Positions 10,090 to 51,100 of a stretch of DNA of 54,464 bases are shown here, piece after piece (the first letter of the stretch is position 1; each line of letters begins with the position of its first letter). Under the pieces are notes generated by a model. It was not told the origin of the DNA, did not search any database, and saw only the letters and a program-made list of their open reading frames with translations. The position numbers and the translations under genes are program-made. The DNA comes from Prorocentrum cordatum. Its lineage: Eukaryota. The stretch spans positions 62,001-116,464 of the forward strand of contig CAUYUJ010000239.1 in assembly GCA_963575745.1 (NCBI GenBank), in the 5' to 3' direction.

Positions 10090-10390
10090 CAGTCTGCCGC
10101 AGCCGCGCAGACGCAGACGCGCAGCCGCAGCCGCGCAGCCGCGCAGCCGCAGCCGCAGTCGCTGCAGCTGCAGCCGCGGCCGCTGCAGCCGCAGCCGCAG
10201 CTGCAGCAAGCCAGAATCTCATTAAGCCGCAGCCGCAGCCGCAGTCGGAACCGCAGCCGCAGCCGCAGCCGAAGCCGCAGCCACCGCCGCAGCAAGTCGA
10301 GCTGCAGCCGCAGCCACAGCAGGAGCCGCAGCCATAGCGGCAGCCGCAGCCGCAGCCGCAGCTGGAAGCCGCAGCCGCAGCCGCAGCCAC
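10090..10390. repeat. (GCAGCC)n hexamer minisatellite
   Basis: Directly visible. It explains the low-complexity ORFs here. Confidence 0.95.
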
Positions 10391-20625: not shown

Positions 20626-21085
20626 CTTCCTTTTGTGGCTGCGTAAGATATTGAAATCGTAACCTTCACCCTGCACGAAGTGGTTACGCAAGATATTGAA
20701 ATCGTAACCTTCACCCTGCACAAACGGTACTGTTGGTGTGAGCGATGCCACACAAATAACAGCTCTCCTGTCACTTCGAGGTGTCCCGACCTGTCTGGCT
20801 AGATAGTCCCAGTCAGCGTGACTGAAGTCAGATCCCCAGCACTCCGTCTTTCCAAGAGAGAGGAAAAGAGACAATTACAGCAGTAACAATAACAATAGCA
20901 AGTGCAGGCGGCCTAGCACACACAATAACAATAACAAGTGCAGCGGCCTAGCTGACCTCGATCTTGCTGAACCCGAAGAAGACGATGAAGGCAGCGATGG
21001 CTGCCGCGCCGCCGCCCGCGGCGACGCGCCCCCCCCCGCACGCTAGACGCCTGTGGGATCCAGACGCCTTGATCCAGACGCCTTG

Positions 21086-23128
21086 AGCCAAAACCCGGAT
21101 AGCGCTGCACGCGTGCAGGCACGCGTGCACGCGTGCCTGAAGCGTTCCCAGAATACTCTAGAAAGCTTGCCTGAAGAGCTCTGGGGAGCTCTCCCCAAGC
21201 TCTTCTGAAACGCTGCCAGCGACGCTTCCGCGCGTGCCTGCACGCGTGCAGGCACGCGTGGACGCGTGCCGGATGCGCTCCCGGGCGCGCTGCGAAGTTT
21301 TAAAAGCCCCTCCGGGGATCGTGGACCGGCGAAGATGGGCGCGTCCGCCTCGCCACCTACCTCTGGCTTCTTCTTTGAAAATCCTCAGCTCTCCAAGGAG
21401 TTATCGGGGAACTTGGTAGCGTCCAAAACCCGGATAGCGCTGCCAGGCACGCGCCCACGCGTGCCTGCACGCGTGCAGGCACGCGTGCACGCGTGCCTGA
21501 AGCGCCCCCGGGATACTCTAGATAGCTTTCCTGAAGAGCTCTGGGGAGCTCTCCTCAAGCGCTGTTGAAGCGCTGCCAGCGACTCTTCCGCGCGTGCCTG
21601 CACGCTTGCAGGAACGCGTGGACGCGTGCCAGAAGCGCTCCCGGATACGCTGCGAAGTTTTACAAGCCCCTTCCAGGGATCGTGGACCAGCAAAGATGGG
21701 CGCGCCCCCCTCGCCACCCACCTCCGGCTTCTTCTCTGAAACCCTCAGCTCTCCAAGGAGCTATCCGGGAAAAACCCGGATAGCAAAGAGGCATACTCTG
21801 GAACGCTTTCCTGAAGAGCTCTGGGGAGCTCTCCTGAAGTGCTTCTGAAGCGCTGCCAGGCACGCTTCCACGCGTGCCTGCACGCGTGCAGGCACGCGTG
21901 GACGCGTGCCAGAAAGCGCTCCCGGACACGCTGCGACCTCCGACAACTCGCTGCGACGACTCTGGACCGGCGAAGATGGGGGCTGCTGGCAGGCACACCC
22001 ACCGTCCGGCTTCTGATCTAAAACCTTATAGCTCTCAGAGAGCTCTCCGGGAAACTAGCTGCACCCCGCGCCGGAATTCCTCTAGCTCGTCGTTGCCGAA
22101 GAGCTCTACGAGGTAAGAGGCACTCACACTGGAAGGCTTTCCTGAAGAGCTCTGGGGAGCTCCCCCGAAGCGCTACTGAAGCGCTGCCAGGCTCGCTTCC
22201 ACGCGAGCCCGCACGCGTGGACGCGTGCCGGAAGCGCTCCCGGACACGCTGCGAACTTTTACAAGTGTCTGCGGGGATCGTGGACCGGCGAAGATGGGCT
22301 GCTGGCAGGCACCACCACCGTCCGGCTTCTAATCTAAAACCCTATAGCTCTCAGAGAGCTCTCCGGGAACATAGTGTTTTTAGAAGAGAAGCCAGCGGGT
22401 GCGCGTGCATCGCCGCACCCCCACGCTCCCCGCTCCACGATCCCCGCAGCGCCTCGCCGGGGCCTGCAGCGTGTCCGGGAGCGCTCCAGGTACGCTGCGC
22501 AGCGTGCCCCCACGCGTGCAGGCACGCGTGGAAGCGTCGCTGTCAGCGCTTCAGGAGCGCTTCAGGAGAGCTTTCCAGCGACCCTCGAGCTCCGCCGCGC
22601 GAGGTCTCCAGCGCCACCACGCACGTTTAAAGCGTGCGTCAGGCCGCCCTATGTTCTCTTGCTTGGCTATCCGGGTTTTGGACAACAACAGGTCGATGCC
22701 GAAGAGCTCTACGAGGTATTACTCTTTTAGCTTCGCCGCTAACGCTCTAACGGAAGCTCCACGAGTCATAACCTGTTGCTGTCCAAAACCCGGATAGCCA
22801 AGCAAGAGAACATAGGGCGGCCTGACGCACGCGTTAATCGCGCGTGGTGTCGCAGGAAACATCGCGCGGCGGAGCTCGAGGGTCGCTGGAAAGCTTTCCT
22901 GAAGCGCTCCTGAAGCGCTCCTGAAGCGCTGACAGCGACGCTTCCACGCGTGCCTGCACGCGTGGGGGCTCGCTGCGCAGCGTACCTGGAGCGCTCCCGG
23001 ACACGCTGCAGGCCCCGGCGAGGCGCTGCGGGGATCGTGGAGCGGGGAGCGTGGGAGTGCGGCGACGCACGCGCACCCGCCAGCTTCTCTTGTAACAACC
23101 CCATGTAGCCCAAGAGGCTATCCGGGAA
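21086..23128. mobile_element. Nested cluster of family-D and family-C elements plus family-B/A end fragments
   Basis: D copy 21412-21771 (cttggtagcgtccaaaacccggatagc...gctatccgggaa). Two C-type copies in opposite orientation at ~22370-22691 and ~22772-23128. B ends gaagagctctacgaggta at ~22115 and ~22718. Confidence 0.75.
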
Positions 23129-25530: not shown

Positions 25531-28500
25531 GTAGCAACATCTAATTCAGGATGAGTCGTTGGTCGACTCACCATTCCGTGCAATTCTCTCGGCTGAAGGC
25601 GAAGACTTTCAGAACCTCAATGGGGAGACCGTGCGGAGCCCGAGTGGACATGCTGGTATTCTTTTCCGCTCGGACCTCGCCAAACAGTTCCTAGACCAGC
25701 GTATTGGGGTAAGATATGCTGTGGTTGCGTTTCAACCCTTCATTTTTGCATCAATTTATTTGCCCCACAAGGGCACGATGGGGAAGACGGAAGTGGCAGA
25801 ATAGGGCATTGTTCAACTTTACCAGGACATACTCAGGAAGTGCGCTGTAGATTGCAAGCAGTTGCAACCACTTCACCATATCAAACATCTCGTCATCAGC
25901 ATCGATGCTAATGTTGAGGTCCATCAAAACTCCTTATCGGGGCACCTGCAGGTTTCGGGAGATGGGGTTCTACCTGATCAACGTGGAGGGCGTGGCGGGC
26001 ATGAAAAACGTGCGAGAATCATCAGAAGAGCCATGAGCGAGGCTCTAGTGGCCACCATGGGTATCTTGGGACTCCAGCTGGCTAACACCTTTGGGGCTCC
26101 GAGGCACAGCAAGGAGGAGGGGGGCACTACGTGGAGGAGTACGAGGGGCTATGAGCATCTATACGACTATCTAGCGGTACCCAAATCTTGGAAGCTCCCA
26201 CCAACAACTTCGACTTGGCTTCTTCCTGAGGCAGCTGGAAGAAAGAGATCTTTGGAAGGCGATCTATCATTAGACACGTTCTGGAGTGACCATAGGCTTC
26301 TATCACTCACGGCTCCGAGCATCGAGGACATACAGTTGGACCGTGCGAGCTGTCTTCCCAGGAAGATGGCACACTGGCATGTGGACCCTGGTGTGCCCTC
26401 ACGTGAGGCCGCTGCGCTTTTCGACCGTGCCCTTCTCCCCAGCTCACACATCTTCGGCAGTGCATCCGACACAGTAGTTAGGGAGGTGGTGGGTACCAAA
26501 CATTATTACGAGGAGGTGGGTTTGGAGGTGGAGGAGAACGGCAAGGATAAGAAGGAGCAGGCCAGAAGGACGAGGAGCAGGATGGTGGAGAACAGCGTGA
26601 TGGGCAACCCCCTGGAGTCCATGAGTGAGGGCCTCCTGAAGGCCGCGGAGTTAGCCCCGACTGGAACCCTGAGGAGGAGCTCAGGGACACCCAGATGGTC
26701 GGAGGAGCACGTACAGATCAGGCAGGCGCACTATGCTTTGCATAAGTTGTGGAAGAGAGGGGAAGTGGATGAGGAGACGTTCAAGTCAAGTAGGAGGAGG
26801 TGGAACAAAGTGAGAGGGGCCAGGAAGAGAGAGTGCATCGAACATGCCTATCGAGATGGAAGGAAACGTACAACGATTGTTCGGAGTCTGATTATTGATG
26901 GGGTACCATGTACTGATCGAAGTAAATGGACTGAGGCCCTCCGTCGACACGGCCTCACTAGATACTCCAGTGAAGATGAGAAGTCACGTACTGCGCACTG
27001 CCTGAGGGAGCTGAGGAAGAGGGCGGAGGAGGAGATGAGGAAGGAAGGTTGTACCAAGTGCCCACTAGACATGGGGGTGCTGCTCCAGACTCGTGCAAAG
27101 TCGAAAGTGGGGAAGGCTGTGGGGTCAGACGGCGTTTCGGCCGCTATGCTCAAGACACTCTCTTGGGAAACACTCCGTCTTGTACTGCAGGCCTTCCAGT
27201 CCCTTTATCAGCGCCAGATTGTCACACCAGAATCGTGGAGAAAGATCCTTGTCACAGTCATCCTGAAAAACAAGTTGAAGTGTTCCCTGGGCGAATCCAG
27301 GGGGTTAGTGTTACTCGGTGTCTTTGGTAAATGGTACAGCGGGTGCCTCACCCACCTAATTCAGCGGCACATCAGAGCGAGGGGATCGGGAGAATTTGCC
27401 CGATGCTATGGCTTTGTGCCGGAGCGTAGATGTCATGAAGTAACGGCGGGTCTTAAAAACGCCTGCCGCCATGCTGCACAGTGGGGGATGTCACATGTGC
27501 TCCACCTCGCCAGCCTTGACGTGGCCTGTGCTTTTGATTCCTTTACGGTACCTGTGGCGGCACAGGCTCTGGAATATATTGGCGTTAAACATCAGCTTGC
27601 ATACGCACTACTTGAGTGCTATCTCGACAACGAGGCGGAGTTCCGCTTCCAAGAGGTATCGACAGCTGGTGCACCTTGGAACCGATGCGTCCGCACGGGC
27701 TCGCTCGAGGCACCGACCTTGTGGATCGCCCTCTCCATTGCTGCCTTTGATGAGATTGCAAAGGGATGGCATGAGAAGGGGTGGGGGTGGTCTGTCTAGG
27801 ACGCGGGTGCATGTGTACGCAGCTGCGAACATCGGGACTGGAAAGTCACTAACATGTTGTGGGCCGATAATGTGATTTTGCTCGCGGCCAGCTCATTTCA
27901 ATTGACAACCATGATTGCCGACATGACGTATGCCCTCCGTCGCTTTGGGTTTGAACGGAAAGAGAGTAGTATTGAATATATGAAGCTAGGATGTGACCAT
28001 GACTTGGAGGTGCCTTTGGTTGTCCCGACAGCTGGCCCAAGGGAGGGCCAAGGGTGTCTGAGCTGCGCAAGCCATCTCCAGCTGTTTGAGCAGGAGAGGC
28101 GCACAAATGAGCATAAAGTATTGCCACATGTCATCAAACTCAAACAGGTTACGAAAATGGAGATCTTGGGTACTATGCTGGATAGAGAGTTCAAAATGCA
28201 TGCTGATATTGTTCACAGAATGAAAGAAATGGAGAAAGCATTTTGCAATGCCCGCCCCTTTTTCATGAATAGGCAGATTGCGATGAAGAAGAAAATCAGA
28301 AGATCTGTCACGATGGTGCAAACACGCTTTTTGTATGGCATTCAGGGCATCACCATAGATACGAGCACGTTGAAGTATATTCATTCACGTGAGGGCGAGC
28401 TCCTGTCAAAACTGGTTTGGCGAAGAAAAAAGTCCGAGGTGGGTTGGTCCATCTTTGGCCGACGCATGTTCGACATGGGGAAGAAAATATTGCAGAAGAT

Positions 28501-29179
28501 GGGCAAACCCAGCCTGGCCCAACTCACGCTCTACAAGCAGTGGATGTGGGGCCAAAGATATGGCGCTATCTTGTTTTCCAGTTGAGTTGGATACCTCACC
28601 TGACTTTGTGCAGAATGAGCCCTCGGTGACGGGGGGTTCTCAAGAGCTCGGAGAGTCCGTTGGGAGCAGACCATCTGGGGAGGAGCCATCACAAACACAT
28701 ACCTAGAATCGCCGCAAACGTATCACACACTGGCGCCGGCGGTGAACCGTCAACCTGGTCACCGGCGGTGAACCGTTTTTCTTAAAATCTGCATTTTCAA
28801 TTTTCGATGTTAATACGAGGTCGGTTCCCGGAAGTGAACCCATAGTATAAATCCCTTATTAGAGCTGAGCTGCTCTGGGGACGAAGTTTATATACGTATG
28901 CTTAGCGCAAAAATCTGCTTTCCCAAAGAAAACAAATAATTGAATATCTTTCAAATTCTAGCAAAACTGACCAAAAGTCACCACTTTGTCCGCCCCGGCC
29001 AGGTGGGCGAACTAGCTCCAACCCGCGCCAGAATTCCTCTAGCTCATCGATGACGAAGAGCTCTACGAGGTAATATGCGAAACAGTGTCAAGATGGCCAA
29101 AAGAACAGACGGGTATCCCTGGGGACCACCTCACCCACTCGCCCTGCCTGTGAGTTGCCAGAGGGACCGCGGACATCAA
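25531..29179 (+). pseudogene. Decayed LINE ORF2 (APE + RT), same clade as the 15909 element
   Basis: One frame with stops at 25802, 27797 and 28583. Motifs SIYLP, IDAN, YDYL, SDH, GSDGV, LDVACAFD, VRTG, WADN. Interrupted by a B element at 28730-29072. Confidence 0.88.
28730..29072 (-). mobile_element. Family-B non-autonomous Helitron2-like element with a rearranged 3' hairpin
   Basis: a|ctggcgccggcggtgaaccgtcaacc ... gaagagctctacgaggta. The LINE sequence continues on both sides without a TSD. Confidence 0.8.
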
Positions 29180-32502: not shown

Positions 32503-33781
32503 CGATCTCGCCTGATACGCGGGCGCGCCAACACTGGCGCCGGCGGTAAACCGTCAACCTTTCTTACCGCCGGGGGACTCGTAGAGCTTCCTGACAATAT
32601 ATAATGTAGAAAAGAATTTCAGAGAACGACTAGTTTTTCAGCCCAAGCGATTATAGACCTCTCAAGATGACTCTAACAAAACAAACGAACAGTTTTCCAA
32701 TCGAGCTCGAGTATGAAACCGAGTTCAGACCTCTGAATGCGACAGGCGGACGCGTCTGATGTCTGCGGATCGATTCCTGTGATTACCAGCTCTGCAGCCC
32801 CCCATACAGCCTGAGTTAAGTGCAGAAAACCGAGAGTACCTCTCAGGATGACTCGAATAATACAACAGTTTCGCGGATCTCGTTCGAGCAGCAGACCGAG
32901 TTCCGAGCTCTCGGTTCGACGAACGGACGCGCCTGATGTCTCGAAATCGATTCCTGTGACCAGCAGCACTGTAGCCCTCCCCCAGCACGATTTAAGTACA
33001 GAAAACCGAGAGCACTTCTCAAGATGACTCGAACAATACCAATAGGTTCGCGAACCTAGCTCGGGGAGCAGGCCGAGTTCAGAGCTCTTGATTCAACAGA
33101 CGAACGCGCCTGATAATTCTGAATCGATTTCTGTGATTATCAGCTCTGTGGCTGCCCTACAGATCGATTTAGTACGAAAAACCGAGAGCGTCTGCTACAA
33201 TAACTCGAATAATACGAATAGGTTTGCGACCCTAGCTCGGCTAGCAGACCGAGTTCAGACCTCTAGATTCAACAGGCGAACGCGCCTGATCATTCTGAAT
33301 GCATTAGCTGTGCTTACCAGCTCTGTAGCTGTCCTAAAGCTCAGTTATGTTCAGATAACCGACAGCGCGTATCAAGATGACTCGAAACGGCCGTTCCCGC
33401 CTGCCTGCTTTTTGGCCTTCAAAGTTACCCGATCGAGCTGAGATCAAGATGGCGAGCGGGAATAAGATCGAATATCATGGGAAAAAATACTAGAGCTTTA
33501 ACGAATTGTCAAATTTCGAGAACCAAATTTTCAACCGACCAAAAGTCAGCAAAAGGTCCGTCGAGATTTTTCTTGTCAACTAGCTCTCCAGCTCCCCGGA
33601 ACTGGGCGCCGGCGGTACACCGTCAACCTTTCTACCGCCGGGGGACTCGTAGAGCTTCCTGACAATATATAATGTGGAAAAGGATTTCAGAGAACGACTA
33701 GTTTTTCAGCCCAAGCGATTATAGACCTCTCAAGATGACTCTAACAAAACAAACGAACAGTTTTCCAATCGAGCTCGAGTA

Positions 33782-34907
33782 CTGGGCGCCGGCGGTAAAC
33801 CGTCAACCTTTCTTACCGCCGGGGGACTCGTAGAGCTTCCTGACAGTATATAATGTGGTGAGAAATGCCAGAGAAATATTTTTTCATCCCAAGCGATTTC
33901 AGACCTCTCAAGATGACGCTAACAAAAAAAACAAACAGTTTGGTAACCCTGCTCGAGTATCAAACCGAGTTGAGACCTCTGAATGCGACAGGCGGACGCG
34001 TCTGATGTCTGCGAATCGACTCCAGTAATTACCAGCTCTGCAGCCCCCCTACAGCCCGAGTTAAGTGCAGACAACCGACAGCACCTCTCAGCATGACTCG
34101 AATAATACAATAGTTTCGCGGAGCTAGTTCGAGCAGCAGACCGAGTTCCGAGCTTTGGGTTCGACAGACGGACGCGCCTGATGTTCCCGAATCGATTTCT
34201 GTGACCAGCAGCACTGTAGCACCCCCCCCCCCCCCCCAGCAAGAGTTAAGTGCAGAAAACTGAGAGCATTTATCAAGATGACTCAAATAATGCTACTAGT
34301 TTCGCGAAACTAGCTCGGGCAGCAGGCCGAGTTCAGAGCTCGTGATTCAACAGACCGGCGCGCCTGATGATTCTCAATCGATTCATGTGACTATGAGCTC
34401 TGTCGCTGCCCTACAGCTCGAGTTGAGTACAAAAAACCAAGAGGGTCTGCTCAGATGACTCGAATAATACAAATAGGTTTGCGGACCTGGCTCGGCTAGC
34501 AGACCGAGTTCAGACCTCTTGATTGAACAGGCGAACGCGCCTCATCATTCTGAATCGATTAGCTGTGCTTACCAGCCCTGTAGCTGTCCTAATGCTCGAG
34601 TTATGTTCAGCAAACCGCGATCGCGTAGCAAAATGACTTAAAACGGCCGATCCCGCCTGCCCGCTTTTTGGCAGTGAAAGGTACCCGATCGAGCTGAGAT
34701 CAAGATGGCGAGCGGAAATAAGATCACATATCATGGGAAAAAATACTAGAGCTCAAACGAATTGTTGAATTTCGAGAACAAAATTTTCAACCGACCAAAA
34801 GTCACCAAAAGGTCCGTCGAGATTTTTCTTGCCAACTAGCTCTCCAGCGCGCCGGAATTACTCTTAAGCTTCCAGCAATAACTTGCTAAGGGAAGCTCTA
34901 CGAGTTT
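33782..34907 (-). mobile_element. Intact family-A element nested in the copy starting at 33602
   Basis: Host gagctcgagta|tgaaaccgag is split with no TSD and resumes at 34908. Confidence 0.88.
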
Positions 34908-37866
34908 TGAAACCGAGTTCAGACCTCTCAATGCGACAGGCGGGCGCGTCTGATGTCTGCGGATCGATTCCTGTGATTACCAGCTCTGCAGCCCCCCCAT
35001 ACAGCCTGAGTTAAGTGCAAAAAACCGAGAGCACCTCTCAGGATGACTCGAATAATACAACAGTTTCGCCGATCTCGCTCGAGCAGCAGACCGAGTTCCG
35101 AGCTCTCGGTTCGACGAACGGACGCGCCTGATGTCTCGAAATCGATTCCTGTGACCAGCAGCACTGTAGCCCTCCCCCAGCACGATTTAAGTACAGAAAA
35201 CCGAGAGCACTTCTCAAGATGACTCGAACAATACCAATAGGTTCGCGAACCTAGCTCGGGGAGCAGGCCGAGTTCAGAGCTCTTGATTCAACAGACGAAC
35301 GCGCCTGATAATTCTCAATCGATTTCTGTGATTATCAGCTCTGTGGCTGCCCTACAGATCGAGTTAAGTACGAAAAACCGAGAGCGTCTGCTACAATGAC
35401 TCGAATAATACGAATAGGTTTGCGACCCTAGCTCGGCTAGCAGACCGAGTTCAGACCTCTGGATTCAACAGGCGAACGCGCCTGATCATTCTGAATGCAT
35501 TAGCTGTGCTGACCAGCTCTGTAGTTGTCCTGAAGCTCGAGTTATCTTGAGAAAACCGACAGCGCGTATCAAGATGACTCGAAACGGCCGTTCCCGCCTG
35601 CCTGCTTTTTGGCCTTCAAAGTTACCCGATCGAGCTGAGATCAAGATGGCGAGCGGGAATAAGATCGAATATCATGGGAAAAAATACTAGAGCTCTAACG
35701 AATGGTCAAATTTCGAGAACAAAATTTTCAACCGACCAAAAGTCACAAAAGGTCCGTCGAGATTTTTCTTGCCAACTAGCTCTCCAGCTCCCCGGAACTG
35801 GGCGCCAGCGGTAAAACCGTCAACCTTTCTTACCGCCGGGGGACTCGTAGAGCTTCCTGACAATATATAATGTGGAAAAGAATTTCAGAGAACGACTAGT
35901 TTTTCAGCCCAAGCGATTATAGACCTCTCAAGATGACTCTAACAAAACAAACGAACAGTTTTCCAATCGAGCTCGAGTATGAAACCGAGTTCAGACCTCT
36001 GAATGCGACAGGCGGACGCGTCTGATGTCTGCGGATCGATTCCTGTGATTACCAGCTCTGCAGCCCCCCATACAGCCTGAGTTAAGTGCAGAAAACCGAG
36101 AGTACCTCTCAGGATGACTCGAATAATACAACAGTTTCGCGGATCTCGTTCGAACAGCAGACCGAGTTCCGAGCTCTCGGTTCGACGAACGACGCGCCTG
36201 ATGTCTCGAAATCGATTCCTGTGACCAGCAGCACTGTAGCCCTCCCCCAGCACGATTTAAGTACAGAAAACCGAGAGCACTTCTCAAGATGACTCGAACA
36301 ATACCAAAAGGTTCGCGAACCTAGCTCGGGGAGCAGGCCGAGTTCAGAGCTATTGATTCAACAGACGAACGCGCCTGATAATTCTCAATCGATTTCTGTG
36401 ATTATCAGCTCTGTGGCTGCCCTACAGATCGAGTTAAGTACGAAAAACCGAGAGCGTCTGCTACAATGACTCGAATAATACGAATAGATTTGCGACCCTA
36501 GCTCGGCTAGCAGACCGAGTTCAGACCTCTGGATTCAACAGGCGAACGCGCCTGATCATTCTGAATGCATTAGCTGTGCTGACCAGCTCTGTAGTTGTCC
36601 TGAAGCTCGAGTTATCTTGAGAAAACCGACAGCGCGTATCAAGATGACTCGAAACGGCCGTTCCCGCCTGCCTGCTTTTTGGCCTTCAAAGTTACCCGAT
36701 CGAGCTGAGATCAAGATGGCGAGCGGGAATAAGATCGAATATCATGGGAAAAAATACTAGAGCTCTAACGAATGGTCAAATTTCGAGAACAAAATTTTCA
36801 ACCGACCAAAAGTCACCAAAAGGTCCGTCGAGATTTTTCTTGCCAACTAGCTCTCCAGCTCCCGGAACTGGGCGCCGGCGGTAAACCGTCAACCTTTCTT
36901 ACCGCCGGGGGACTCGTAGAGCTTCCTGACAATATATAATGCGAAAAAGAATTTCAGAGAACGACTAGTTTTTCAGCCCAAGCGATTATAGACCTCTCAA
37001 GATGACTCTAACAAAACAAACGAACAGTTTCCCAATCGAGCTCGAGTATAAAAACCGAGTTCAGACCTCTGAATGCGACAGGCGGACGCGTAGGATGTCT
37101 GCGGATCGATTCCTGTAATTACCAGCTCTGCAGCCCCCCATACAGCCTGAGTGAAGTGCAGAAAACCGAGAGTACCTCTCAGGATAACTCGAATAATACA
37201 ACAGTTTCGCGGATCTCGTTCGAGCAGCAGACCAAGTTCCGAGCTTTCGGTTCGACGAACGGACGCGCCTGATGTCTCGAAATCGATTCCTGTGACCAGC
37301 AGCACTGTAGCCCTCCCCCAGCACGATTTAAGTATTGGAAACCGAGAGCACTTCTCAAGATGAATCGAACAATACCAATAGGTTCGCGAACCTAGCTCGG
37401 GGAGCAGGCCGAGTTCAGAGCTCTCGATTCAACAGACGAACGCGTCTGATGATTCCCAAATCGATTTCTGTGATTATCAGCTCTGTGGCTGCCCTACAGA
37501 TCGAGTTCAGTACGAAAAACCGAGAGCGTCTGCTATAATAACTCGAATAATACGAATAGGTTTGGGACCCTAGCTCTGCTAGCAGACTGAGTTCGGACCT
37601 CTAGATTCGACAGCCGAACGCGCCTGATCATTCTGCATCGATTAGCTGTGCTCACCAGCTCTGTAGCTGTCCTGAAGCTCGAGTTATCTTGAGAAAACCA
37701 AGAGCGCGTATCAAGATGACTCGAAACGGCCGTTCCCGCCTGCCTGCTTTTTGGCCTTCAAAGTTACTCGATCGAGCTGAGATCAAGATGGCGAGCGGGA
37801 ATAAGATCGAATATCATGGGAAAAAATACTAGAGCTCTAACGAATTGTCAAATTTTAAGAACAAAA

Positions 37867-38264
37867 CTGGCGCCGGCGGTGAACCGTCAACCTGGTCACC
37901 GCCGGGAACCTCGTAGAGCTCCTTTCACGTAAGAGTGCTCAGAGTCGAAAGAAAAGAGCTTCTGGAAGCATTTCTCGAAAAAGAGAAAAATTGATTTTTT
38001 TCGTGTCGAGAGGAAGATGGTTCCGCCAAGTGTTTTGCTAGTAAAAGTGCGCCTACAGAGCTCATACTCAGACAGAGAGGCCCTCATAGTCGTTTACAGG
38101 TGCGAAGAATCTGCTTTCTCAAAATGAATTGTCAAATATCTTTCAAAAAATTGCAAAACCACCCGAAAGTTATCACTTTGTCCTTTTTGGCCGGGTCGAC
38201 CAACTAGCTCCGCCCCGCGCCGGAATTCCTCTAGCTCATCGATGCCGAAGAGCTCTACGAGGTA
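37867..38264 (-). mobile_element. Intact family-B element (398 bp)
   Basis: ctggcgccggcggtgaacc...tcaccgccgggaacctcgtagagctc ... gagctctacgaggta. Confidence 0.88.
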
Positions 38265-39367
38265 CTGGGCGCCGGCGGTAAACCGTCAACCTTTCTTACC
38301 GCCGGGGGACTCGTAGAGCTTCCTGACAGTATATAGCGTGGAAAAAACTTAAATAACGAATAGGTTTTCAACCCAAGCGATTTCAGATCTCAAGATGACT
38401 CTAACAAAAAAACAAACAGTTTCGCAACCCATTTCGAGTATCAAACCGAGTTCAGACCTCTCAATGCGACGGGCGGGCGCGTCTGATGTCTGCAAACACT
38501 CATAAGATTCCAAGCCCTGCAGCCCCCCTACAGCCCGAGTCTCTGTGCAGAAAACCGACAGTATCGACTCAAATACTAGAATAGTGTCGCGAACCTAGTT
38601 CGAGCAGCAGACCGAGTTCGGAGCTCTGGAATCGACCGACAGACGCGCCTGAGGTGTGGAAATCGATATCTGTGAACCGCAGCACTGTAGCCCTTCCCCA
38701 GCACGAGTTGAGTGCAGAAAATTGAGAGCACTTCTCAAGATAATACGAGATATACGAATAGTTTCGCGAACCTAGCTCGGACAGCAGGCCGAGTTCAGAG
38801 CTCTCGGTTCAATGGACGAACGCAACTGATGATTTCCCATCGATCTCTGTGACAATGAGTCCTGTAGCTGCCCTACAGCTCGAGTTAAGTACAGAAAACC
38901 GAGAGCGTTTGTCAAGACGACTCGAATAATACGGATAGGTTTGCGGGCCTAGCTCGGCTAGCAGACCGAGTTCAGACCTCTGGATTTGACAGGCGAACGC
39001 GCCTGATAATTCTGAATGCGATAGGCGTGCTTACGAGCTCTGTGGTTGCCCTACAGCTCGAGTTAAGTAGAAAATACCGACAACGCGTATCAAGATGACT
39101 CGAAACGACCGATCCCGCCGGGACGCTTTTTGGCAGTAAAAGGTACCCGATCGAGCTGAGATCAAGATGGCGAGCGGGAATAAGATCGAATATCACGGGA
39201 AAAAATACTAGAGCTCTAACGAATGGTCAAATTTCGAGAACAAAGTTTTCAACCGACCAAAAGTCAGCAAAAGGTCCGTCGAGATTTTTCTTGCCAACTA
39301 GCTCTCCAGCGCTCCGGAATTACTCAAGCTTCCAGCAATAACTTGCTAAGGGAAGCTCTACGAGTTA
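38265..39367 (-). mobile_element. Intact family-A element abutting the B element
   Basis: B+A together split host agaacaaaa|ttttcaacc (37866/39368). Confidence 0.88.
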
Positions 39368-40493: not shown

Positions 40494-43371
40494 CTGGGCG
40501 CCGGCGGTAAACCGTCAACCTTGGTTACCGCCGGGAGACTCGTAGAGCTTCCTAACTCGACTTAAATTGAGAAAACCGAGAGCACTTACCAACAATCTGA
40601 CTTATAGTGAATAGTTTTTTACCTCTGAATACGACAGACGGACGCGTCTGATGTCTGCGAATCGACTTCTGTCATGACTAGCCCTGCAGCCCTTCTACAG
40701 CCCGAGTTAAACGCAGAAAACCGACAGCACTTCTCAGGATGACTCGAACAATAAAATAGTTTCGCGCACCTAGTTCGGGCAGCAGACAGAGTTCGGAGCT
40801 CTCTATTCGACAGGCGCACGCGCCTGATGTCTTCAAATCGATTCCAGCGATTACCAGCCATGCAGCCCCCCTACAGCAGCATCTCGCAAGCAACTCGAAC
40901 GATACGAATAGTTTCGCGCTTCTAGATCGGGCAGCAGACCGAGTTCAGAGCTCTAGATTCGGCAGACAAACGCAACTGATGATTCTGAATCGGTGCCTGT
41001 AAATATCAGCTCTGACGCTGTCCTACAGCTCGAGTTAAGTGCAGAAAACCAAGAGTTTTTGTCAAGACGACTCGAATAATACGAACAGGTTTGCGGACCT
41101 AGCTCGGCCAGTAGACCGAGTTCAGACCTCTGGGTTCAACAGGCGAACGCGCCTGATCATTCTGCATGCATTAGCTGTGCTCACCAGCTCTGTAGCTGCC
41201 CTAGAGCTCGAGTTATGTTCAGAAAACCGTCAGCGCATATCAAGATGACTCGAAACGGCCGTTCCCGCCACAGTGCTTTTCGATAGTAATATTCACCCGA
41301 TCGAGCTGAGATCAAGATGGCGAGCGGGAATAAGATCGAATATCACGGCAAAAAAATACTAGAGCTCAAACGAATGGTCAAATTTTGAGAACGAAATTTT
41401 CAACCGAGCAAAAGTCACCAAATGGACGCCGGCGGTAAACCGTCAACCTTGGTTACCGCCGGGAGACTCGTAGAGCTTCTCGACTGAAGTTGAGAACGCC
41501 GAGCACCTACCAACATTCCGACTCATAGTGAATATTTTGTGACCTCTCAATGCGACAGGCGAACGCGTCTGATGTCTGCGAGTCGACTGCTGTCATCACC
41601 AGCCCTGCAGCCCCCCTACAGCCCGAGTTGAGTACAGCACCTCTCAGGATGACTCCAACAATACAGTAGTTTCGCAGACCTCATTCGGGCAGCAGACCGA
41701 GTTCCGAGCTCTGGATTCGACAGGCGGACGCGTCTGATGTCTTCAACTGGATTCCTGTGACCACAAGCACTGTAGCTCCCCTCAGCGCGAGTTAAATGGA
41801 GGCAACCGAGAGCACTTCTCAAGATGGTTCGACCAATACGAATAGTTTCGCGATTCTAGATCGGGTAGCAGACCGAGTTCAGAGCTCTGAATTCGACACA
41901 CAAACGCAACTGATGATTCTGAATCGTTTCCTGTAAATATCAGCTCCGTAGCTGTCCTACAGCTCGAGCTAAGTAGAAAAAACCGAGAGTTCCTGTCAAG
42001 ATGCCTTCAATAATACAAATAGGTTTCCAGACCTAGCTCGGCTAGCAGACCGAGTTCAGACCTCTGGGTTCAACAGGCGAACGCGCCTCATCATTCTGAA
42101 TGCGATAGCTGTGCTTACCAGCTCTGTAGCTGCCCTGAAGCTCGAGTTATGTTCAGATAACCGTCAGCGCGTATCAAGATGACTCCAAACGGACGATCCC
42201 GCCACAGTGCTTTTTGACAGTAATATTCACCCGATCGAGCTGAGATCAAGATGGCGAGCGGGAATAAGGTCGAATATCACGGGAAAAAATACTAGAGCTC
42301 TAACGAATGGTCAAATTTCGAGAACAAAATTTTCAACCGAGGAAAAATCACCAAAAGTTCCGTCGAGATTTTTCTTGCCAACTAGCTCTCCAGCGCTCCG
42401 GAATTACTGGGCGCCGGCGGTAAACCGTCAACCTTTGTTACCGCCGGGGGACTCGTAGAGCTTCCTGAGAACATATAATGTAGAAAAAAAATTCAGAGAA
42501 CGAATAGTTTTTCAGTCCAACTCGAGTATCAGAGCGAGTTCAGACCTCTGAATGCGACAGACGGACGCGTCTGATGTCTTCGAATCGATTCATGTGATTA
42601 CCCGCCCTGCAGCCTCCCTACAGCCCGAGTTAAGTGCAGAACGCCGACAGTAGCGCTCAAGATGACTGGAAGAATACGAACAGTTTCGTGATTCTGAATC
42701 GCTCAGCAGACCGAGTTCAGAGCTCTGGAATCGACAGACAAACGCAACTGATCATTCTGGATTGGTTTCTGTAACTATCAGCCCTGTAGCTGTCCTATAG
42801 CTCGAGTTAAGTACAAGAAACCGAGAGCGCCTATCAGGATGATTCGAATAATACGAATAGGTTTGCGGACCTGGCTCGGCTAGCAGACCGAGTTCAGACC
42901 TCTGGTTCGAACAGCCGAACGCGCCTGATGATTCTGAGTGCGATAGGTGTGCTTACCAGCACTATAGCTGCCCTACAGCTCGAGTTAAGTAGAAAATACC
43001 GACAACGCGTATCAAGTTGACTCGAATAATAAGAATAGGTTTGCGAACCTAGCTCGGCTAGCAGACCGAGTTCAGACCTATGGATTCAACAGGCGAACGC
43101 GCCTGATCATTCTGCATGCATTAGCTGTGCTGACCAGCACTAAAGCTGCCCTACAGCTCGAGTTAAGTACAAAATACCGACAACGCGTATCAAGATGACT
43201 CGAAACGGCTGATCCCGCCACCGTGCTTTTCGATAGTAATATTCACCCGATCGATCTGAGATCAAGATGGCGAACGAAAAAAAGATCGAATATCACGGGA
43301 AAAAATACTAGACCTCTAACGAATCGTCAAATTTCGAGAACAAAATTTTCAACCGACCAAAAGTCACCAAA

Positions 43372-44333
43372 CTGGGTGCCGGCGGTAAACCGTCAACCTT
43401 GGTTACCGCCGGGAGACTCGTAGAGCTTCCTAACTCGACTTAAGTTGAGAAAACCGAGAGCACTTACCAACAATCTGACTTATAGTGAATAGCCCGAGTG
43501 AAGTGCAGAAAACCGACAGCACCTCTCAGGATGACTCGAACAATAGGAATAGTTTCGCGAACCTAGTTCGGGCAGCAGACAGAGTTCAGAGCTTTGCATT
43601 CGACAGGCGGACGCCTGATGTCTTCAAATCGATTCCAGTGATTACCAGCCATGCAGCCCCCCTACAGCCCGACTTAAGTCCAGATAACCGACAGCATCTT
43701 CCAAGCGACTTGAACGATACGAATAGTTTAACGATTCTAGATCGGGCAGCAGACCGAGTTCAGAGCTCTGGCTTCGAGAGACAAACGCAACTGATGATTC
43801 TGAATTGGTGCCTGTGAATATGAGCTCTGTAGCTGTCCTACAGCTCGAGTTAAGTCGAGAAAACCGAGAGTTTATGTCAAGATGACTCGAATAATACGAA
43901 TAGGTTTGCGGACCTAGCTCGGCTAGCAGGCCGAGTTCAGACCTCTGGGTTCAACAGGCGAACGTGCCTGATCATTCTGCATGTATTAGCTGTGCTTACC
44001 AGCTCTGTAGCTACCCTGGAGCTCGAGTTATGTTGAGAAAACCGTCAGCGCGTATCAAGATGACTCGAAACGGCCGTTCCCGCCACAGTGCTTTTCGATA
44101 GTAATATTCACCCGATCGAGCTGAGATCAAGATGGCGAGCGGGAATAAGATCGAATATCACGGGAAAAAATACTAGAGCTCTAACGAATAGTCAAATTTC
44201 GAGAACCAAATTTTCAACCGAGGAAAAGTCACCAAAAGTTCCGTCGAGATTTTTCTTGCCAACTAGCTTTCCAGCGCGCCGGAATTACTCTTAGCTTCCA
44301 GCATTTACTTGCTAAGGGAAGCTCTACGAGTTA
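43372..44333 (-). mobile_element. Intact family-A element
   Basis: Splits host gtcaccaaa|agttccgtcg with no TSD. Confidence 0.88.
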
Positions 44334-45676: not shown

Positions 45677-46019
45677 CTTGCTATGTCCAAAAAACCCGGA
45701 TAGCATTAGGCGCTCGAAACGTCGTCGGAGACGCCTGGAACGGCGCCTTGGACGATGCCTGGGGCGCTGCGCGAGGACCGCGCAAGCGCTGCGTAGGAGC
45801 TTGCGAGCGCCGTGGCGATGACTGCCTGGGAGCTTCGGCAACGCCGCCGCCACGCGTATTGGGAAACGCTAGGAACAGCGCTCCCGGACACGCTGCAAGC
45901 CCCGGCGAGTCGCTGCGGGGGTCGTGGAGCGGGGAGCGTGGGAGTGCAGCGATGCACGCGCACCCGCCGGCTTCTCCTCTAACAACCCTATGTAGCCCAA
46001 CAAAAGGGCTATCCGGGAA
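45677..46019 (-). mobile_element. Intact family-C element (343 bp)
   Basis: cttgctatgtccaaaaaacccggatagc ... tagcccaacaaaagggctatccgggaa. A second copy is split into 44382-44422 and 46449-46748. Confidence 0.85.
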
Positions 46020-46022
46020 TAA

Positions 46023-46422
46023 CTGGCGCCGGCGGTGAACCGTCAACCTGGACACCGCCGGGAACCTCGTAGAGCTCCTGGCACGCGTAAGAGTGCTCAG
46101 CATCAAAAGAGAAAGCTTCTCGAAGCATTTCTCGGAAAACAGGAAACATGATTTTTTTTGATGTCGACATAAAGATGGTTCCGCCAAGTGTTTTGATAGT
46201 AAAAGCGCATCTACAGAGCTCATATTAAGACGCAGAGGCCCTCATAGTCGTTTACAGGTGCGAAAAATCTGCTTTCTCAAAATAAATGGTCAAATATCTG
46301 TTAAATTCTTGCAAAACCGACCAAAAGTTACCACATTGTCCGTTCTGGTCGGGTCGACCAACTAGCTCCACCCCGCGCCGGAATTCCTCTAGCTCATCGA
46401 TGCCGAAGAGCTCTACGAGGTA
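46023..46422 (-). mobile_element. Intact family-B element
   Basis: Both ends present. Removing C and B restores host cagcta|taa|ctagctaaggg, as seen uninterrupted at 53441-53460. Confidence 0.88.
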
Positions 46423-47133
46423 CTAGCTAAGGGAAGCTCTACGAGTTACGTCGTCGGAGACGCCTGGAACGGCGCCTTGGACGATGCCTGGGGCGCTGCG
46501 CGAGGACCGCGCAAGCGCTGCGTAGGAGCTTGCGAGCGCCGTGGCGATGACTGCCTGGGAGCTTCGGCAACGCCGCCGCCACGCGTATTGGGAAACGCTA
46601 GGAACAGCGCTCCCGGACACGCTGCAAGCCCCGGCGAGTCGCTGCGGGGATCGTGGAGCGCGGAGCGTGGGAGTGCGGCGATGCACGCGCACCCGCCGGC
46701 TTCTCCTCTAACAACCCTATGTAGCCCAACACAAGGGCTATCCGGGAATTACTCTTAAGCTTCCAGCAATACCGTGCTAAGGGAAGCTCTACGAGTTACT
46801 CTCAAGCTTCCAGCAACAACTTGCTTAGGGGAGCTCTACGAGTTAGTTCCGTCGAGATTTTTCTTGCCAACTAGCTCTCCAGCGCTCCGGAATTACTCTA
46901 AAGCTTCCAGCAATAACTTGCTAAGGGAAGCTCTACGAGTTACTCGTAAGCTTCCAGCAATAACTTGCTAAGGGAAGCTCTACGAGTTATTACTCTTAAG
47001 CTTCCAGCAATAACTTGCTCAGGGAAGCTCTACGAGTTATTACTCTTAAGCTTCCAGCAACTGGGCGCCGGCGGTAAACCGTCAACCTTGGTTACCGCCG
47101 GGAGACTCGTAGAGCTTCCTAACTCGACTTAAA

Positions 47134-48192
47134 TAACACGTAGAGCTTCCCTCAGCAAGTTATTGCTGGAAGCTTTAGAGTAATTCCGGAGCGCTGGAGA
47201 GCTAGAAGGCAAGAAAAATCTCGACGGAACTTTTGGTGACTTTTGGTCGGTTGAAAATTTTGTTCTCGTGATTTGACCATTCGTTAGAGCTCTAGTATTT
47301 TTTCCCGTGATATTCGATCTTATTCCCGCTCGCCATCTTGATCTCAGATCGATCGGGTGAATATTACTATCGAAAAGCACGGTGGCGGGATCGGCCGTTT
47401 CGAGTCATCTTGATACGCGTTGTCGGTATTTTGTTCTTAACTCGAGCTGTAGGCAGCTACAGTGCTGATAAGCACACCTATCGCACTCAGAATCATCAGG
47501 CGCGTTCGCCTGTTGAATCCATAGGTCGGAACTCGGTCTGCTAGCCGAGCTAGGTTCGCAAACCTAGTCGTATTATTCGAGTCAACTTGATACGCGTTAT
47601 CGGTATTTTCTACTGAACTCGAGCTGTAGGGCAGCTACAGTGCTGGTAAGCACACTTATCGCTCTCAGAATGATCAGGCGCGTTCGACTGTTCGAACCAG
47701 AGGTCTGAACTCGGCCTGCTAGCCGAGCCAGGTCCGCAAACTTATTCGTATTATTCGAATTATCTCGATAGGCGCTCTCGATTCCCTGTACCTAACTCGA
47801 GCTATAGGACAGCTACAGGGCTGATAGTTACAGAAACCGATTCAGAATCATCAGTCGCGCTTGTCTGTCGAATCCAGAGCTCTGAACTCGGTCTGCTGCG
47901 CGATCCAGAATCACGAAACTGTGTATTCTTCCAGTCATCTTGAGAGCTACTGTCGGCGTTCTGCACTTAACTCGGGCTGTAGGGAGCTGCAGGGCGGGTA
48001 ATCACATGAATCGATTCGGAGACATCAGACGCGTCCGTCTGTCGCATACAGAGGTCTGAACTCGGTCTGATACTCGAGTTGGACTGAAAAACTATTCGTT
48101 CTCTGCAATTTTTTCCGACATTATATGTTGTCAGGAAGCTCTACGAGTCCCCCGGCGGTAACAAAGGTTGACGGTTTACCGCCGGCGCCCAG
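47134..48192 (+). mobile_element. Intact family-A element in the opposite orientation
   Basis: TAACACGTAGAGCTTCC...TTACCGCCGGCGCCCAG splits host cgacttaaa|tcgagaaaacc with no TSD. Confidence 0.9.
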
Positions 48193-51100
48193 TCGAGAAA
48201 ACCGAGAGCACTTACCAACAATCTGACTTATAGTGAATAGTTTTTTACCTCTGAATACGACAGACGGACGCGTCTGATGTCTGCGAACCGACTTCTGTCA
48301 TCACTAGCCCTGCAGCCCTTCTACAGCCCGAGTTAAACGCAGAAAACCGACAGCACTTCTCAGGATGACTCGAACAATAAAATAGTTTCGCGCACCTAGT
48401 TCGGGCAGCAGACAGAGTTCGGAGCTCTCTATTCGACAGGCGGACGCGCCTGATGTCTTCAAATCGATTCCAGCGATTACCAGCCATGCAGCCCCCCTAC
48501 AGCAGCATCTCGCAAGCAACTCGAACGATACGAATAGTTTCGCGATTCTAGATCGGGCAGCAGACCGAGTTCAGAGCTCTAGATTCGGCAGACAAACGCA
48601 ACTGATGATTCTGAATCGGCGCCTGTAAATATCAGCTTTGACGCTGTCCTACAGCTCGAGTTAAGTGCAGAAAACCAAGAGTTTTTGTCAAGACGACTCG
48701 AATAATACGAACAGGTTTGCGGACCCAGCTCGGCCAGTAGACCGAGTTCAGACCTCTGGGTTCAACAGGCGAACGCGCCTGATCATTCTGCATGCATTAG
48801 CTGTGCTCACCAGCTCTGTAGCTGCCCTAGAGCTCGAGTTATGTTCAGAAAACCGTCAGCGCATATCAAGATGACTCGAAACGGCCGTTCCCGCCACAGT
48901 GCTTTTCGATAGTAATATTCACCCGATCGAGCTGAGATCAAGATGGCGAGCGGGAATAAGATCGAATATCACCGGAAAAAATACTAGAGCTCTAACGAAT
49001 GGTCAAATTTCGAGAACGAAATTTTCAACCGAGCAAAAGTCACCAAAAGTTCCGTCGAGATTTTTCTTGCCAACTAGCTCTCCAGCGCTCCGGAACTGGC
49101 GCCGGCGGTGAACCGTCAACCTGGTGACCGCCGGGAACCTCGCAGAGCTCCTCTCACTGCTAAGTGTGCAGAGAATCGACACAAAGTGGAAAACAAGAAA
49201 TTTTTCGAAAATCTTGATTTTCGATTTTTTCGATGTTCATGTTCGCTCAGTTCCCGGAAGTGAACTCATGCAAAAATGCATCGGGAGAGCTGAGCTGCTG
49301 TCAGAGAGGAGTTTACATGCCAATGCGACGCGCATAAATCTGCTTTCTCAAAGTAAATGGTCAAATATCTTTCAAACTGGGCGCCGGCGGTAAACCGTCA
49401 ACCTTGGTTACCGCCGGGGAACTCGTAGAGCTTCCTGACTCGACTTAAGTTGAGAAAACAGACAGCACTTACGAACAATCTGACTTATAGGAAAATAGTT
49501 TTTGACCTCTAAATGCGACAGACAGGCGCGTCTGATGTCTGCAAATCGACGCCTGTCATTACAAGCCCTGCAGCTCCCCTACAGCCCGAGTTAAGTGCAG
49601 AAACCCGACAGCACCTCTCAGGATGACTCGAACAATAGGAATAGTTTCGCGGACCTAGTTCGGGCAGCAGACGAAGTTCAGAGCTCTATATTCGACATGC
49701 GGACGCGCCTGATGTCTTCAAATCGATCCCAGTGATAACCAGCCATGCAGCCCCCCTACAGCCCGAGTTAAGTCCAGATAATCGACATTATCTTGCAAGC
49801 GACTCGAACGATACGAATAGTTTCGCGATTCTAGATCGGGCAGCAGGCCGAGTTCAGAGCTTTCGAGTCGACAGACAAACGCAACTGATGATTATGAATT
49901 GGTGCCTCTGAATATCAGCTCTGTAGCTGTCCTACAGCTCGAGTTAAGTGTAGAAAACCGAGCGTTTCTGTCAAAATGACTCGAATAATACGAACAGGTT
50001 TGTGACCCTAGCTCGGCTAGCAGACCGATTTCAGACCCCTGGATTCGACAGGCGAACGCGCCTGATCATTCTGCATTCTCAAAGTAAATGGCCAAATATC
50101 TTTCAAATTTTCGCAAAACCGACCAAAAGTCACCAATTTGTCCTTTCTGGCCGGGCGGTCCAACTAGCTCCACCCCGCGCCGGAATTCCTGTAGCTCATC
50201 GATGCCGAAGAGCTCTACGAGGTATTACACTAAAGCTTCCAGCAATAACTTGCTAAGGGAAGCTCTACGAGTTACTTGTAAGCGTCCAAAACCCGGATAG
50301 CAACTGGGCGCCGGCGGTAAACCGTCAACCTTGGTTACCGCCGGGGGACTCGTAGAGCTTCCTAACTCGACTTAAGTTGAGAAAAGAGACAGCACTTACC
50401 AACAATCTGACTTATAGTGAATAGTTTTTTACTCTGAATGCGACAGACGGACGCGTCTGATGTCTGCGAATCGACTCCTGTCATTATCAGCCCTGCCGCC
50501 CCCCTACAGCCCGAGTTAAGTGCAGAAACCCGACAGCACCTCTCAGGATGACTCGAATAATAGGAATAGTTTCGCGGACCTAGTCCAGCAGACAGAGTTC
50601 AGAGCTCTGTATTCGACATGCGGACGCGCCTCATGTCTTCAAATCGATCCCAGTGATTACCAGCCATGCAGCCCCCCCTACAGCCCGAGTTAAGTCCAGA
50701 TAACCGACATTATCTCGCAAGCGACTCGAACGATACGAATAGTTTCGCGATTCTAGATCGCGCAGCAGGCCGAGTTCAGAGCTCTGGAGTCGACAGACAA
50801 ACGCAACCGATGATTCTGAATTGGTGCCTCTGAATATCAGCTCTGTAGCTGTCCTACAGCTCGAGTTAAGTCCAGAAAATCGAGCGTTTCTGTAAAAATG
50901 ACTCGAATAATACGAACAGGTTTGTGATCCTAGCTCGGCTAGCAGACCGAGTTCAGACCTCTGGATTCAACAGGCGAACGCGCCTGATCATTCTGCATGC
51001 ATTAGCTGTGCTTACCAGCTCTGTAGCTGCCCTAGAGCTCGAGTTATCTTCAGAAAACCGTCAGCGCATATCAAGATGACTCAAAACGGCCGATCCCGCC

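Follow-up and report, generated by a model that had tools for sequence, protein, structure and literature searches.

Non-coding elements with Helitron2-type ends form nests in a repeat-rich contig of Prorocentrum cordatum

We analysed a 54,464-nt stretch of the genome of the marine protist Prorocentrum cordatum (GenBank assembly GCA_963575745.1, contig CAUYUJ010000239.1, positions 62,001 to 116,464 of the forward strand), hereafter the window, and in particular a 1,059-bp repeated element at 47134-48192 (+). The window is eukaryote-like repeat DNA in which copies of this element and of its relatives, sorted here into families A to D, are non-coding and very abundant. An earlier note, made from the letters alone, had described four families with unrelated interiors that share the ends of Helitron2-type rolling-circle transposons. 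Here, we describe the elements, their insertion sites and the pairing of their ends. We conclude that they are probably non-autonomous DNA transposons of the Helitron2/Helentron type (HINE-like), with at least two end-sets: A/B, to which the relatives F and G belong, and C/D.

The reference copy and the anatomy of family A

The reference copy of family A (47134-48192, +) is complete and lies within another A copy, on the minus strand, whose 3′ region it interrupts. Its 5′ part (47134-47181, +) consists of a terminal T, an inverted repeat (47135-47150) and a 5′ hairpin. The copy starts with TAACACGTAGAGCTTCC, a single-letter change from the TAACTCG usual in the family, and the outer 5′ stem is weakened in it by a T>A change. 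In a consensus A copy (32502, minus strand), the 5′ hairpin spans element positions 3-48 and folds at -12.6 kcal/mol, with a z score of -4.2. The centre of the reference copy is an internal satellite of period 178 with 3.8 copies (47399-48069, +), found by tandem-repeat search. Such central tandem repeats, with units of 176-186 bp and 2-4 copies per element, belong to family A only, none of this kind being found in B, C or D.

On the 3′ side, a subterminal inverted repeat complementary to the 5′ one, GGAAGCTCTACGAGT, lies at 48134-48148 (+) and ends 44-47 nt before the 3′ end. A CCC spacer separates it from a 3′ hairpin at 48152-48185 (+), which reads CCGGCGGTAA, 14 nt, TTACCGCCGG and has a 10-bp stem and a 14-nt loop containing GGTTGACGG. 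The tail CGCCCAG (48186-48192, +) closes the element, base 48193 being a flanking T. The family can be written as T + AACTCGTAGAGCTTCC at the start and GGAAGCTCTACGAGT + hairpin + CGCCCAG at the end, which confirms the ends described for it in the earlier note: 5′ repeat and hairpin, subterminal repeat, 3′ hairpin and CGCCCAG before a T. In the window, GGAAGCTCTACGAGT with at most two mismatches has 43 matches against 0.07 expected, and the A hairpin arm occurs 61 times against 5.4 expected.

Families B, C and D

Family B starts with T + ACCTCGTAGAGCTC and has the near-end repeat GAGCTCTACGAGGT, the hairpin arms ..GGTGA / TCACC.. and the tail CGCCAG followed by T. As had been noticed, both repeat partners (ACCTCGTAGAGCTC / GAGCTCTACGAGGT) and both arms (..GTGA / TCAC..) are changed. 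Copies lie at 37867-38264 (−, 398 bp), head-to-tail behind the A copy at 38265-39367 (−), at 46023-46422 (−, 400 bp) and at 49096-50224 (−), the last one holding nested A sequence.

Elements of the C/D type start with TT + CCCGGA(T/G)AGC, that is TTCCCGGA(T/G)AGC, and end with GCTATCCGGG + TTTT(TT)GGAC + 5-8 nt + AAG, the terminus being ..CAAG followed by T. Their repeat CCCGGATAGC occurs 17 times in the window against 2.9 expected. Family C is represented by a 343-bp copy at 45677-46019 (−), and end motifs reveal a C-like copy with another 3′ tail (..CAGG, then T) at 22772-23128 (−). A 1,224-bp copy of family D, recognised by its ends, fold and BLAST matches, lies at 14380-15603 (−), and a 360-bp D-like copy at 21412-21771 (−) has a perfect 10-bp repeat pair. 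The 3′ repeat partner of C and D is contained within the 3′ hairpin, at a distance of 16-18 nt from the element end. These 3′ hairpins have an inner TCC/GGA stem common to both families, and an outer stem that is TGCTA/TAGCA in C and GGCAGCG/CGCTGCC in D. The earlier note was thus right that C and D have their own 5′ hairpins and end with CAAG before T, but the pairing it gave them is imperfect in D, where the 5′ repeat shows one or two mismatches to a 3′ partner placed inside the hairpin (in copy D1 the longest run is at most 5). We also observed two inverted C-like copies around 22730 (22375-23128), each abutting the 5′ end of a B or A element.

The claim of four unrelated interiors has to be amended. 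Between representative copies of A/B and C/D, BLAST gave no match, as claimed, but C and D interiors are 76-84% identical over stretches of 100-230 bp, and A and B have in common their 3′ 57 nt plus a 20-nt identical stretch. By this comparison, the interiors fall into two unrelated groups, A/B and C/D, and not four.

Insertion sites and boundaries

By listing all end motifs and by reading the minus strand at 44.3-46.8 kb and 20.9-23.5 kb, we curated a set of 36 5′ ends and 36 3′ ends. The first base is T in 35 of the 36 5′ ends, the exception being AAACTCG at 34907, and the base that precedes the element varies (G15, A13, T7, C1). All 36 3′ ends are directly followed by T; the next base is T in 19 cases, A in 10, G in 4 and C in 3. 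Outside this set stand a D-like tail at about 21083 (−) that is followed by G, two C-like ..CAGG ends at 22772 (−) and about 22692 (+), both followed by T, and an ambiguous C/D tail at about 53481. The constant T on the 3′ side and the variable base on the 5′ side, both pointed out earlier, therefore hold throughout the curated ends, the one G belonging to the left-out D-like tail.

The flanks of paired ends were then joined, and the joined site was searched for uninterrupted copies. Together with the order of stubs and bodies in the nest (see below), this gave about 13 rejoined insertion events, 12 of them exact to the base, and in agreement with the earlier note no target-site duplication (TSD) was found in any rejoined site. 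Removal of the reference copy restores a site present in 6 uninterrupted paralogs with 1-3 mismatches. The joined flanks of the B copy 50224-49096 match 4 uninterrupted paralogs, those of A 46448-44423 match an intact C copy at 45707 without mismatch, and those of the complete 962-bp A copy at 44333-43372 (43372-44333, −) match 15 paralogs, the best with 0 mismatches. The A+B pair 39367-37867 occupies a single site found in 12 paralogs, A 34907-33782 is matched by 4 paralogs with 0 mismatches, and C 46748-44382 by 6. The sole imprecise junction is that of an A 3′ end at 41416-41430 (−), which reads CGTCCAT in place of ..CCAG; the junction at 41422 is short by about 2 nt, and the host site is without one T. 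Copies insert in one orientation, exactly and without target duplication. Judged from the junctions, the single boundary T would fit equally well an element T...G inserted before a T, an element A...GT inserted after a T, or a 1-bp duplication of T. Under the A...GT reading, about half of the insertions would lie in a T|T target.

Similar boundaries were met in contigs of three public DNA runs (X1, X2 and X3). Contigs that skip the adjacent B and C copies at 46023-46422 and 45677-46019 exactly (745-746 bases) number 11 in X1, 5 in X2 and 1 in X3, and one contig of X2 skips C alone, exactly 343 bases. In other joints, a single T separates the 3′ end of a B element from the 5′ end of another B or of an A element. 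These joints are other genomic contexts with identical exact boundaries. In the same contigs, parts of A reach summed word depths of 10^4-10^5 against about 250-1,000 for the C interior.

Nesting and favoured sites

The order of the nest was read by eye from the end listings and rejoined sites, from about 47060 to 33602, and the nest is resolved within about 32.5-50.3 kb. A stack of five 47-98-nt 5′ stubs of A copies at 46749-47060 (−), which Tandem Repeats Finder calls with a period of 47 or 97, closes last-in-first-out at 42407, 41422, 40494, 36868 and 35798. The host of the copy that ends at 47061 shows no simple closure, and no stub could be matched to two bodies with their start at element position 51 (33601-32534 and 30995-30003). 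Head-to-tail pairs share a single T (40494|40493 and 38265|38264).

Insertions cluster at N|T sites within the first 125 nt of resident A/B-type copies. The favoured sites are 29|30 in the hairpin loop, 47|48, 50|51 (GAGTAA|TTCCGG), GCTAG|TTGG, 98|99 and 124|125, and unrelated end-sets use common ones: A, B and C elements are found at 50|51 and 124|125, and A, B and D elements at GCTAG|TTGG. Nests and head-to-tail pairs produced by frequent insertion into this part of resident copies look like a satellite.

Beside the nest order, three 1,070-bp A bodies within 32534-36867 (−), all starting at element position 51, are 97.4-98.2% identical to one another and about 82-85% identical to most other A copies. 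Their similarity suggests a young subfamily, or in part a tandem duplication.

Pairing of the ends and covariation

To compare the ends of 20 elements, paired by position only, we set the first 24 nt of each against its last 80 nt and recorded the longest stretch of exact complementarity. This run is 12-16 in A, 14 in two of three B copies, 10-11 in C, 10 in D2, 14-16 in F and 10 in G, families F and G being found in metagenomes (see below); end pairs taken across families have a mean longest run of 7.3 (n=308). Weak runs result from point changes (7 in B2, 5 in D1, 6 in the copy of metagenome locus L014; A1 and A8 have 12). The 5′ repeat begins at position 2-3 in the majority of the 20 elements, and the later starts at position 6 (A1) or 9 (B2 and G1) come from a mismatch that interrupts the run. 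In A, B, F and G, the 3′ repeat is placed 2-4 nt upstream of the 3′ hairpin and 41-44 nt from the element end.

The same 5′ repeat also takes part in the 5′ hairpin. Indeed, a hairpin that uses it and starts at position 3 folds in all seven families tested, with z scores of -1.3 to -4.2 for A, B, C, D, F and G. Among intact distinct 5′ ends that belong to the types TAACTCG, TACCTCG and TGACTCG, GAGT or GAGG is the pairing partner of positions 3-6 in most cases. Position 3 is A when the hairpin partner is GAGT and the 3′ repeat CGAGT (A and F), and C when the hairpin partner is GAGG and the 3′ repeat CGAGG (B and G). Since the hairpin partner and the 3′ repeat both track position 3, each of the two alternative partners of the 5′ repeat varies in step with it.

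The earlier note had proposed a covariation analysis of the aligned ends, and for the 3′ hairpin its outcome is positive. We aligned sequences with the loop anchor (at most one mismatch) and a recognisable right arm, decayed copies included, which gave 57 sequences, 44 of them distinct. In this alignment 89.1% of cells are paired, against 21-56% in slid registers. Changes on both sides occur in 4 of 10 pairs and amount to 20 cells against 4.6 +/- 1.8 after shuffling (0/500 shuffles reach this number), and the covariation score is 0.176 against 0.086 (0/500); the aligned sequences being kin, these shuffle counts are not probabilities. The number of pairs with a change on both sides lies within the shuffle range (75/500). 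In the subset from the window and the metagenomes (47 sequences), 91.8% of cells are paired and 8 are doubly changed. From the alignment we infer that the stem of the 3′ hairpin is kept as a structure and its loop as a sequence.

Relatives in metagenomes and genome contigs

A metagenome scan with the 3′ repeat and left hairpin arm as query returned 61 loci, of which 13, each 1.0-2.2 kb long, hold the same hairpin; the 48 others are GC-rich without hairpin and were taken as chance matches. Family F (L008, L010 and L030) has the repeat pair GAGCATTT / AAATGCTC and the tail C(T/C)TAACA followed by T, and family G (L031, L046 and L047) has GAGCAAGCT / AGCTTGCTC and the tail TTGCAAG followed by T. 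Complete elements are present in L008, L030, L047 and L014. A scan of genome contigs with the loop and right arm gave seven loci, five of which are chance matches in bacteria. The two true ones (L064 and L067; 41-43% GC) come from a metagenome-assembled genome (MAG) of bacterial Nitrospinota and carry many diverged copies with the arms CGAGCGGAAA / TTACCGCTCG and tails TTGCCA, mostly with T next. Their placement in a bacterial MAG is most likely binning contamination. The same ends with differing flanks are thus present in 15 other contigs (13 metagenomic, 2 genomic), element boundaries there being drawn by analogy only; a scan of viral contigs gave 0 loci. The additional families from these contigs make the covariation stronger. 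In one of the metagenome loci (L020, a marine contig of 35% GC), an open frame at 1114-1752 (+), next to the 3′ end of an element, has a match to a Lamin tail domain (Pfam, E 3.9e-12).

Coding content and surroundings

Among the 196 stop-to-stop frames of at least 90 aa in the whole window, none has a Pfam match inside the elements, which agrees with their description as non-autonomous. The sole Pfam family above the cut-off in the window is RVT_1, in a frame at 15912-19691 (−) that resembles a long interspersed nuclear element (LINE); other matches are weak, of low complexity and below the cut-off. Rfam gave 0 matches in the window at gathering scores. A second LINE-like region at 25805-28582 (+) contains frames of 664 and 261 residues without Pfam match, which by eye look like a diverged reverse transcriptase. 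Both LINE-like regions abut 3′ hairpins of the elements described here.

Two of the neighbouring 3′ ends are peculiar. Next to the frames of 25805-28582, a B-type 3′ end without 3′ repeat (28730-28773, −) has 14 nt of its right hairpin arm repeated in the place of the left arm. At 21055-21096 (−), a D-like 3′ end stops within its own hairpin loop and is followed by 12 nt (21083-21094, −) that agree letter for letter with the 3′ portion of the spliced leader of dinoflagellates (PMC6050394) and next by a tandem 14-nt unit (x2). The LINE-like reverse transcriptase frame at 15912-19691 lies downstream of these 12 nt on the same strand, and the arrangement may represent the 5′ end of a LINE, with a relic leader, inserted into the hairpin loop. 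The match to the leader is not significant on its own: a 15-nt search of the window with at most three mismatches gave 2 matches against 1.7 expected. Finally, tandem-repeat search shows that the left part of the window (60-65% GC) contains an (AGT)n microsatellite of 110 units, G-rich repeats of 46-48 bp and a (GCCGCA)n array, at 1-335, 7503-8636 and 10096-10392.

Discussion

Taken together, the families share a general layout: a T, then a 10-16-nt repeat complementary both to a downstream stretch of the 5′ hairpin and to a subterminal 3′ repeat beside the 3′ hairpin, and a tail (..CCAG, ..CAAG or ..ACA) that abuts a T. In the published description of Helitron2 (Bao and Jurka 2013, PMC3627910), the terminal inverted repeats are asymmetric and 8-15 bp long. 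The 5′ repeat lies 0-2 bp from its end within a 5′ hairpin, and the 3′ repeat is subterminal, about 20-30 bp from its end and just upstream of a 3′ hairpin. The description also mentions a 5′ T, compensatory changes between related non-autonomous families and a TSD that is mostly lacking, and it associates the layout of asymmetric repeat and 5′ hairpin with a cluster of Helitron2 RepHel proteins. The position and length of the 5′ repeat, the 5′ hairpin, the 3′ hairpin, the 5′ T, the absence of TSD and the compensatory changes are all present in our elements. The assignment of the ends to Helitron2 in the earlier note thus agrees with the definition feature by feature, distances deviating. More generally, the interpretation offered in the note is supported, each of its testable parts having passed.

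No enzyme was seen in the window or in the 15 related contigs. The rolling-circle mechanism, inferred from the ends, could run as follows. A Rep-helicase encoded elsewhere, with an HUH motif, two tyrosines and a Pif1-like helicase, would nick 5′ of the first T, unwind 5′ to 3′ and recognise the 3′ hairpin. The 5′ repeat would switch from its hairpin partner to the 3′ repeat and so help to mark the element end, as Bao and Jurka suggested. A nick between the tail and the flanking T would allow the ends to be joined into a single-stranded circle, which would be pasted 5′ of a T in single-stranded target DNA. In such a scheme, all three nicks would fall 5′ of a T and the first T of the element would recreate the target, which would explain the head-to-tail pairs that share one T.

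Several observations weigh against this interpretation. Pfam searches of 196 frames of the window revealed neither a Rep nor a helicase nor any transposase with these ends; the search for Rep-helicase copies that the earlier note had proposed, run on the 15 related contigs (132 frames, Pfam), returned only the Lamin tail domain of L020, outside the element. A PF14214 search in the MAG holding L064 gave no match, which carries little weight since its controls likewise matched nowhere. In A, B, F and G, the distance of the 3′ repeat from the end is 41-44 nt, against about 20-30 bp in the Helitron2 account cited above, because the hairpin is 34 nt long with a 14-nt conserved loop; in C and D the 3′ repeat is inside the hairpin, a further difference from the same account. 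The near-invariant loop GGTTGACGG is partly a matter of ascertainment, the loop motif having served as search anchor, and a protein that recognises the two ends in double-stranded form would likewise be compatible with covarying repeats. The public contig joints cannot separate alleles from paralogs, or circles from tandem pairs. Many copies are nested in one another and so are not independent samples of target choice. Finally, the strict TT target of Helentrons is not upheld here: a T precedes the element in only 7 of 36 cases, and T is the second base after it in 19 of 36.

Other sources of mobility have to be considered. A different HUH transposase, be it an IS200/IS605-like Y1 enzyme, a Replitron-type Rep or an undescribed one, in place of a Helitron-type Rep-helicase, is in our opinion improbable. 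The lack of any visible Rep-helicase in the window or the 15 contigs would be in its favour. IS200/IS605 elements insert after a fixed short sequence at their left flank, and our elements do not follow this rule, their left flank being varied (G15, A13, T7, C1) and their sole constant neighbour being the T on the right. According to the Replitron report (PMC10288648), end hairpins, lack of TSD and oriented insertion are common to HUH transposons generally, which would suit any enzyme of this kind, but Replitrons are defined there by direct terminal repeats, and there are none here; the layout of asymmetric repeat and 5′ hairpin, for its part, goes with Helitron2 RepHel proteins in PMC3627910. 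Covarying inverted repeats near both ends might also represent the two binding sites of one cut-and-paste transposase or recombinase, as in DDE-type miniature inverted-repeat transposable elements or Crypton-like tyrosine-recombinase elements. We consider this very improbable: no rejoined site shows a TSD, the 3′ repeat is not terminal and lies 16-47 nt inside, insertion is strictly oriented to a T (36/36), and head-to-tail pairs share a single T.

The sequence might also not be mobile DNA at all. Units recur about every 1 kb across 29-54 kb of the window, three 1,070-bp bodies (32534-36867) are 97.4-98.2% identical and Tandem Repeats Finder calls arrays, all of which would be expected of a complex satellite or a segmental duplication. 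Such an origin nevertheless seems highly implausible, as the copies are found in either orientation and within unrelated surroundings (C, a satellite unit, the 3′ region of another copy), with base-exact junctions, with stubs and bodies that close last-in-first-out, and with the same ends between different flanks in 15 other contigs. Equally implausible are short interspersed nuclear elements copied by the adjoining LINEs. The two reverse transcriptase regions (15912-19691, −, and 25805-28582, +) do abut element 3′ hairpins, but the elements have neither a poly-A or simple-repeat tail nor a TSD, and their 5′ ends are exact in 35 of 36 cases, with no pattern of 5′ truncation. Non-autonomous elements of the Helitron2/Helentron type remain the best explanation.

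The clustering of insertions raises the question of target choice. The conserved box TTCCGG..GGAGAGCT, which follows the 5′ hairpin of A/B and has its start at 50|51, resembles the 5′ terminus of family D, TTCCCGGAGAGCT, as judged from window positions 47184-47205 (+) and 22357-22369 (−). The elements might thus home to each other, a resident copy being the preferred target through mimicry of an element start or through its single-stranded hairpin, an idea that we regard as doubtful. If true, it would mean self-targeting by Helitron-type elements, it would account for the growth of satellite-like arrays through nesting, and A/B might then have arisen when a new 5′ module was placed before a C/D-like start.

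With these elements, well-resolved families of the Helitron2/HINE type would become known from the genome of a marine protist and, through their relatives, from marine metagenomes. At least five families lend comparative support to the end signal put forward by Bao and Jurka, a three-way pairing in which the 5′ repeat can pair to its partner in the hairpin and to the 3′ repeat, and the 3′ hairpin, with its putatively structural stem and conserved loop, could serve as a concrete substrate for a Rep-helicase nicking assay. Moreover, a 1-kb "satellite" called by repeat finders turns out to be a nest of transposons, a point of importance when such genomes are annotated, and repeats of this kind can be mis-binned into bacterial MAGs.

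Comparison with known systems

Canonical Helitrons (Helitron1) resemble our elements in the 3′ hairpin, the lack of TSD, the T after the 3′ end and the C-N-purine-purine tail of A to D. They are described (PMC4067079, PMC3627910) with a 5′ TC, a CTRR 3′ end and strict A|T insertion, and without 5′ hairpin or asymmetric repeat. We rejected this assignment: the 5′ ends are TA, TT or TG, the 3′ ends CCAG, CAAG, CAGG or ACA, the preceding base is A in 13 of 36 cases, and a 5′ hairpin is present. Replitrons, copy-and-paste HUH elements of algae and protists (Craig 2023, PMC10288648), come close as a eukaryotic HUH-type copy-and-paste class with a right-end palindrome. They were also rejected, as the short direct terminal repeats given for them in that article are replaced here by asymmetric inverted repeats.

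The nearest counterparts are thus Helitron2 and its non-autonomous derivatives. For Helitron2 a RepHel partner is known; none was seen for our elements in the window or in the 15 related contigs. HINE/DINE-1 elements, which are the non-autonomous counterparts of Helentrons, leave their target unmodified and are characterised by central tandem repeats, a 3′ stem-loop, subterminal repeats and a nested inverted repeat on the 5′ side (Thomas et al. 2014, PMC4067079). The RepHel protein of a Helentron carries an AP-type endonuclease. The Cg_HINE of the Pacific oyster carries a satellite (PMC7492417). Our elements share with both the repeats, the 3′ stem-loop, a central satellite (178-bp in A), the boundary T and the unmodified target. 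They differ from HINEs and Helentrons in that the TT target appears not to be strict and that a single T stands at the ends without runs of 2-5 T, and their host is a protist and not an arthropod or a mollusc. Finally, a Helitron2-like element with a RepHel gene and without AP endonuclease is reported from the dinoflagellate Symbiodinium microadriaticum by Heringer and Kuhn (2021, PMC8788227). This element, which we liken to ours by its description and not by its ends or protein, is an autonomous member of this branch in a dinoflagellate.

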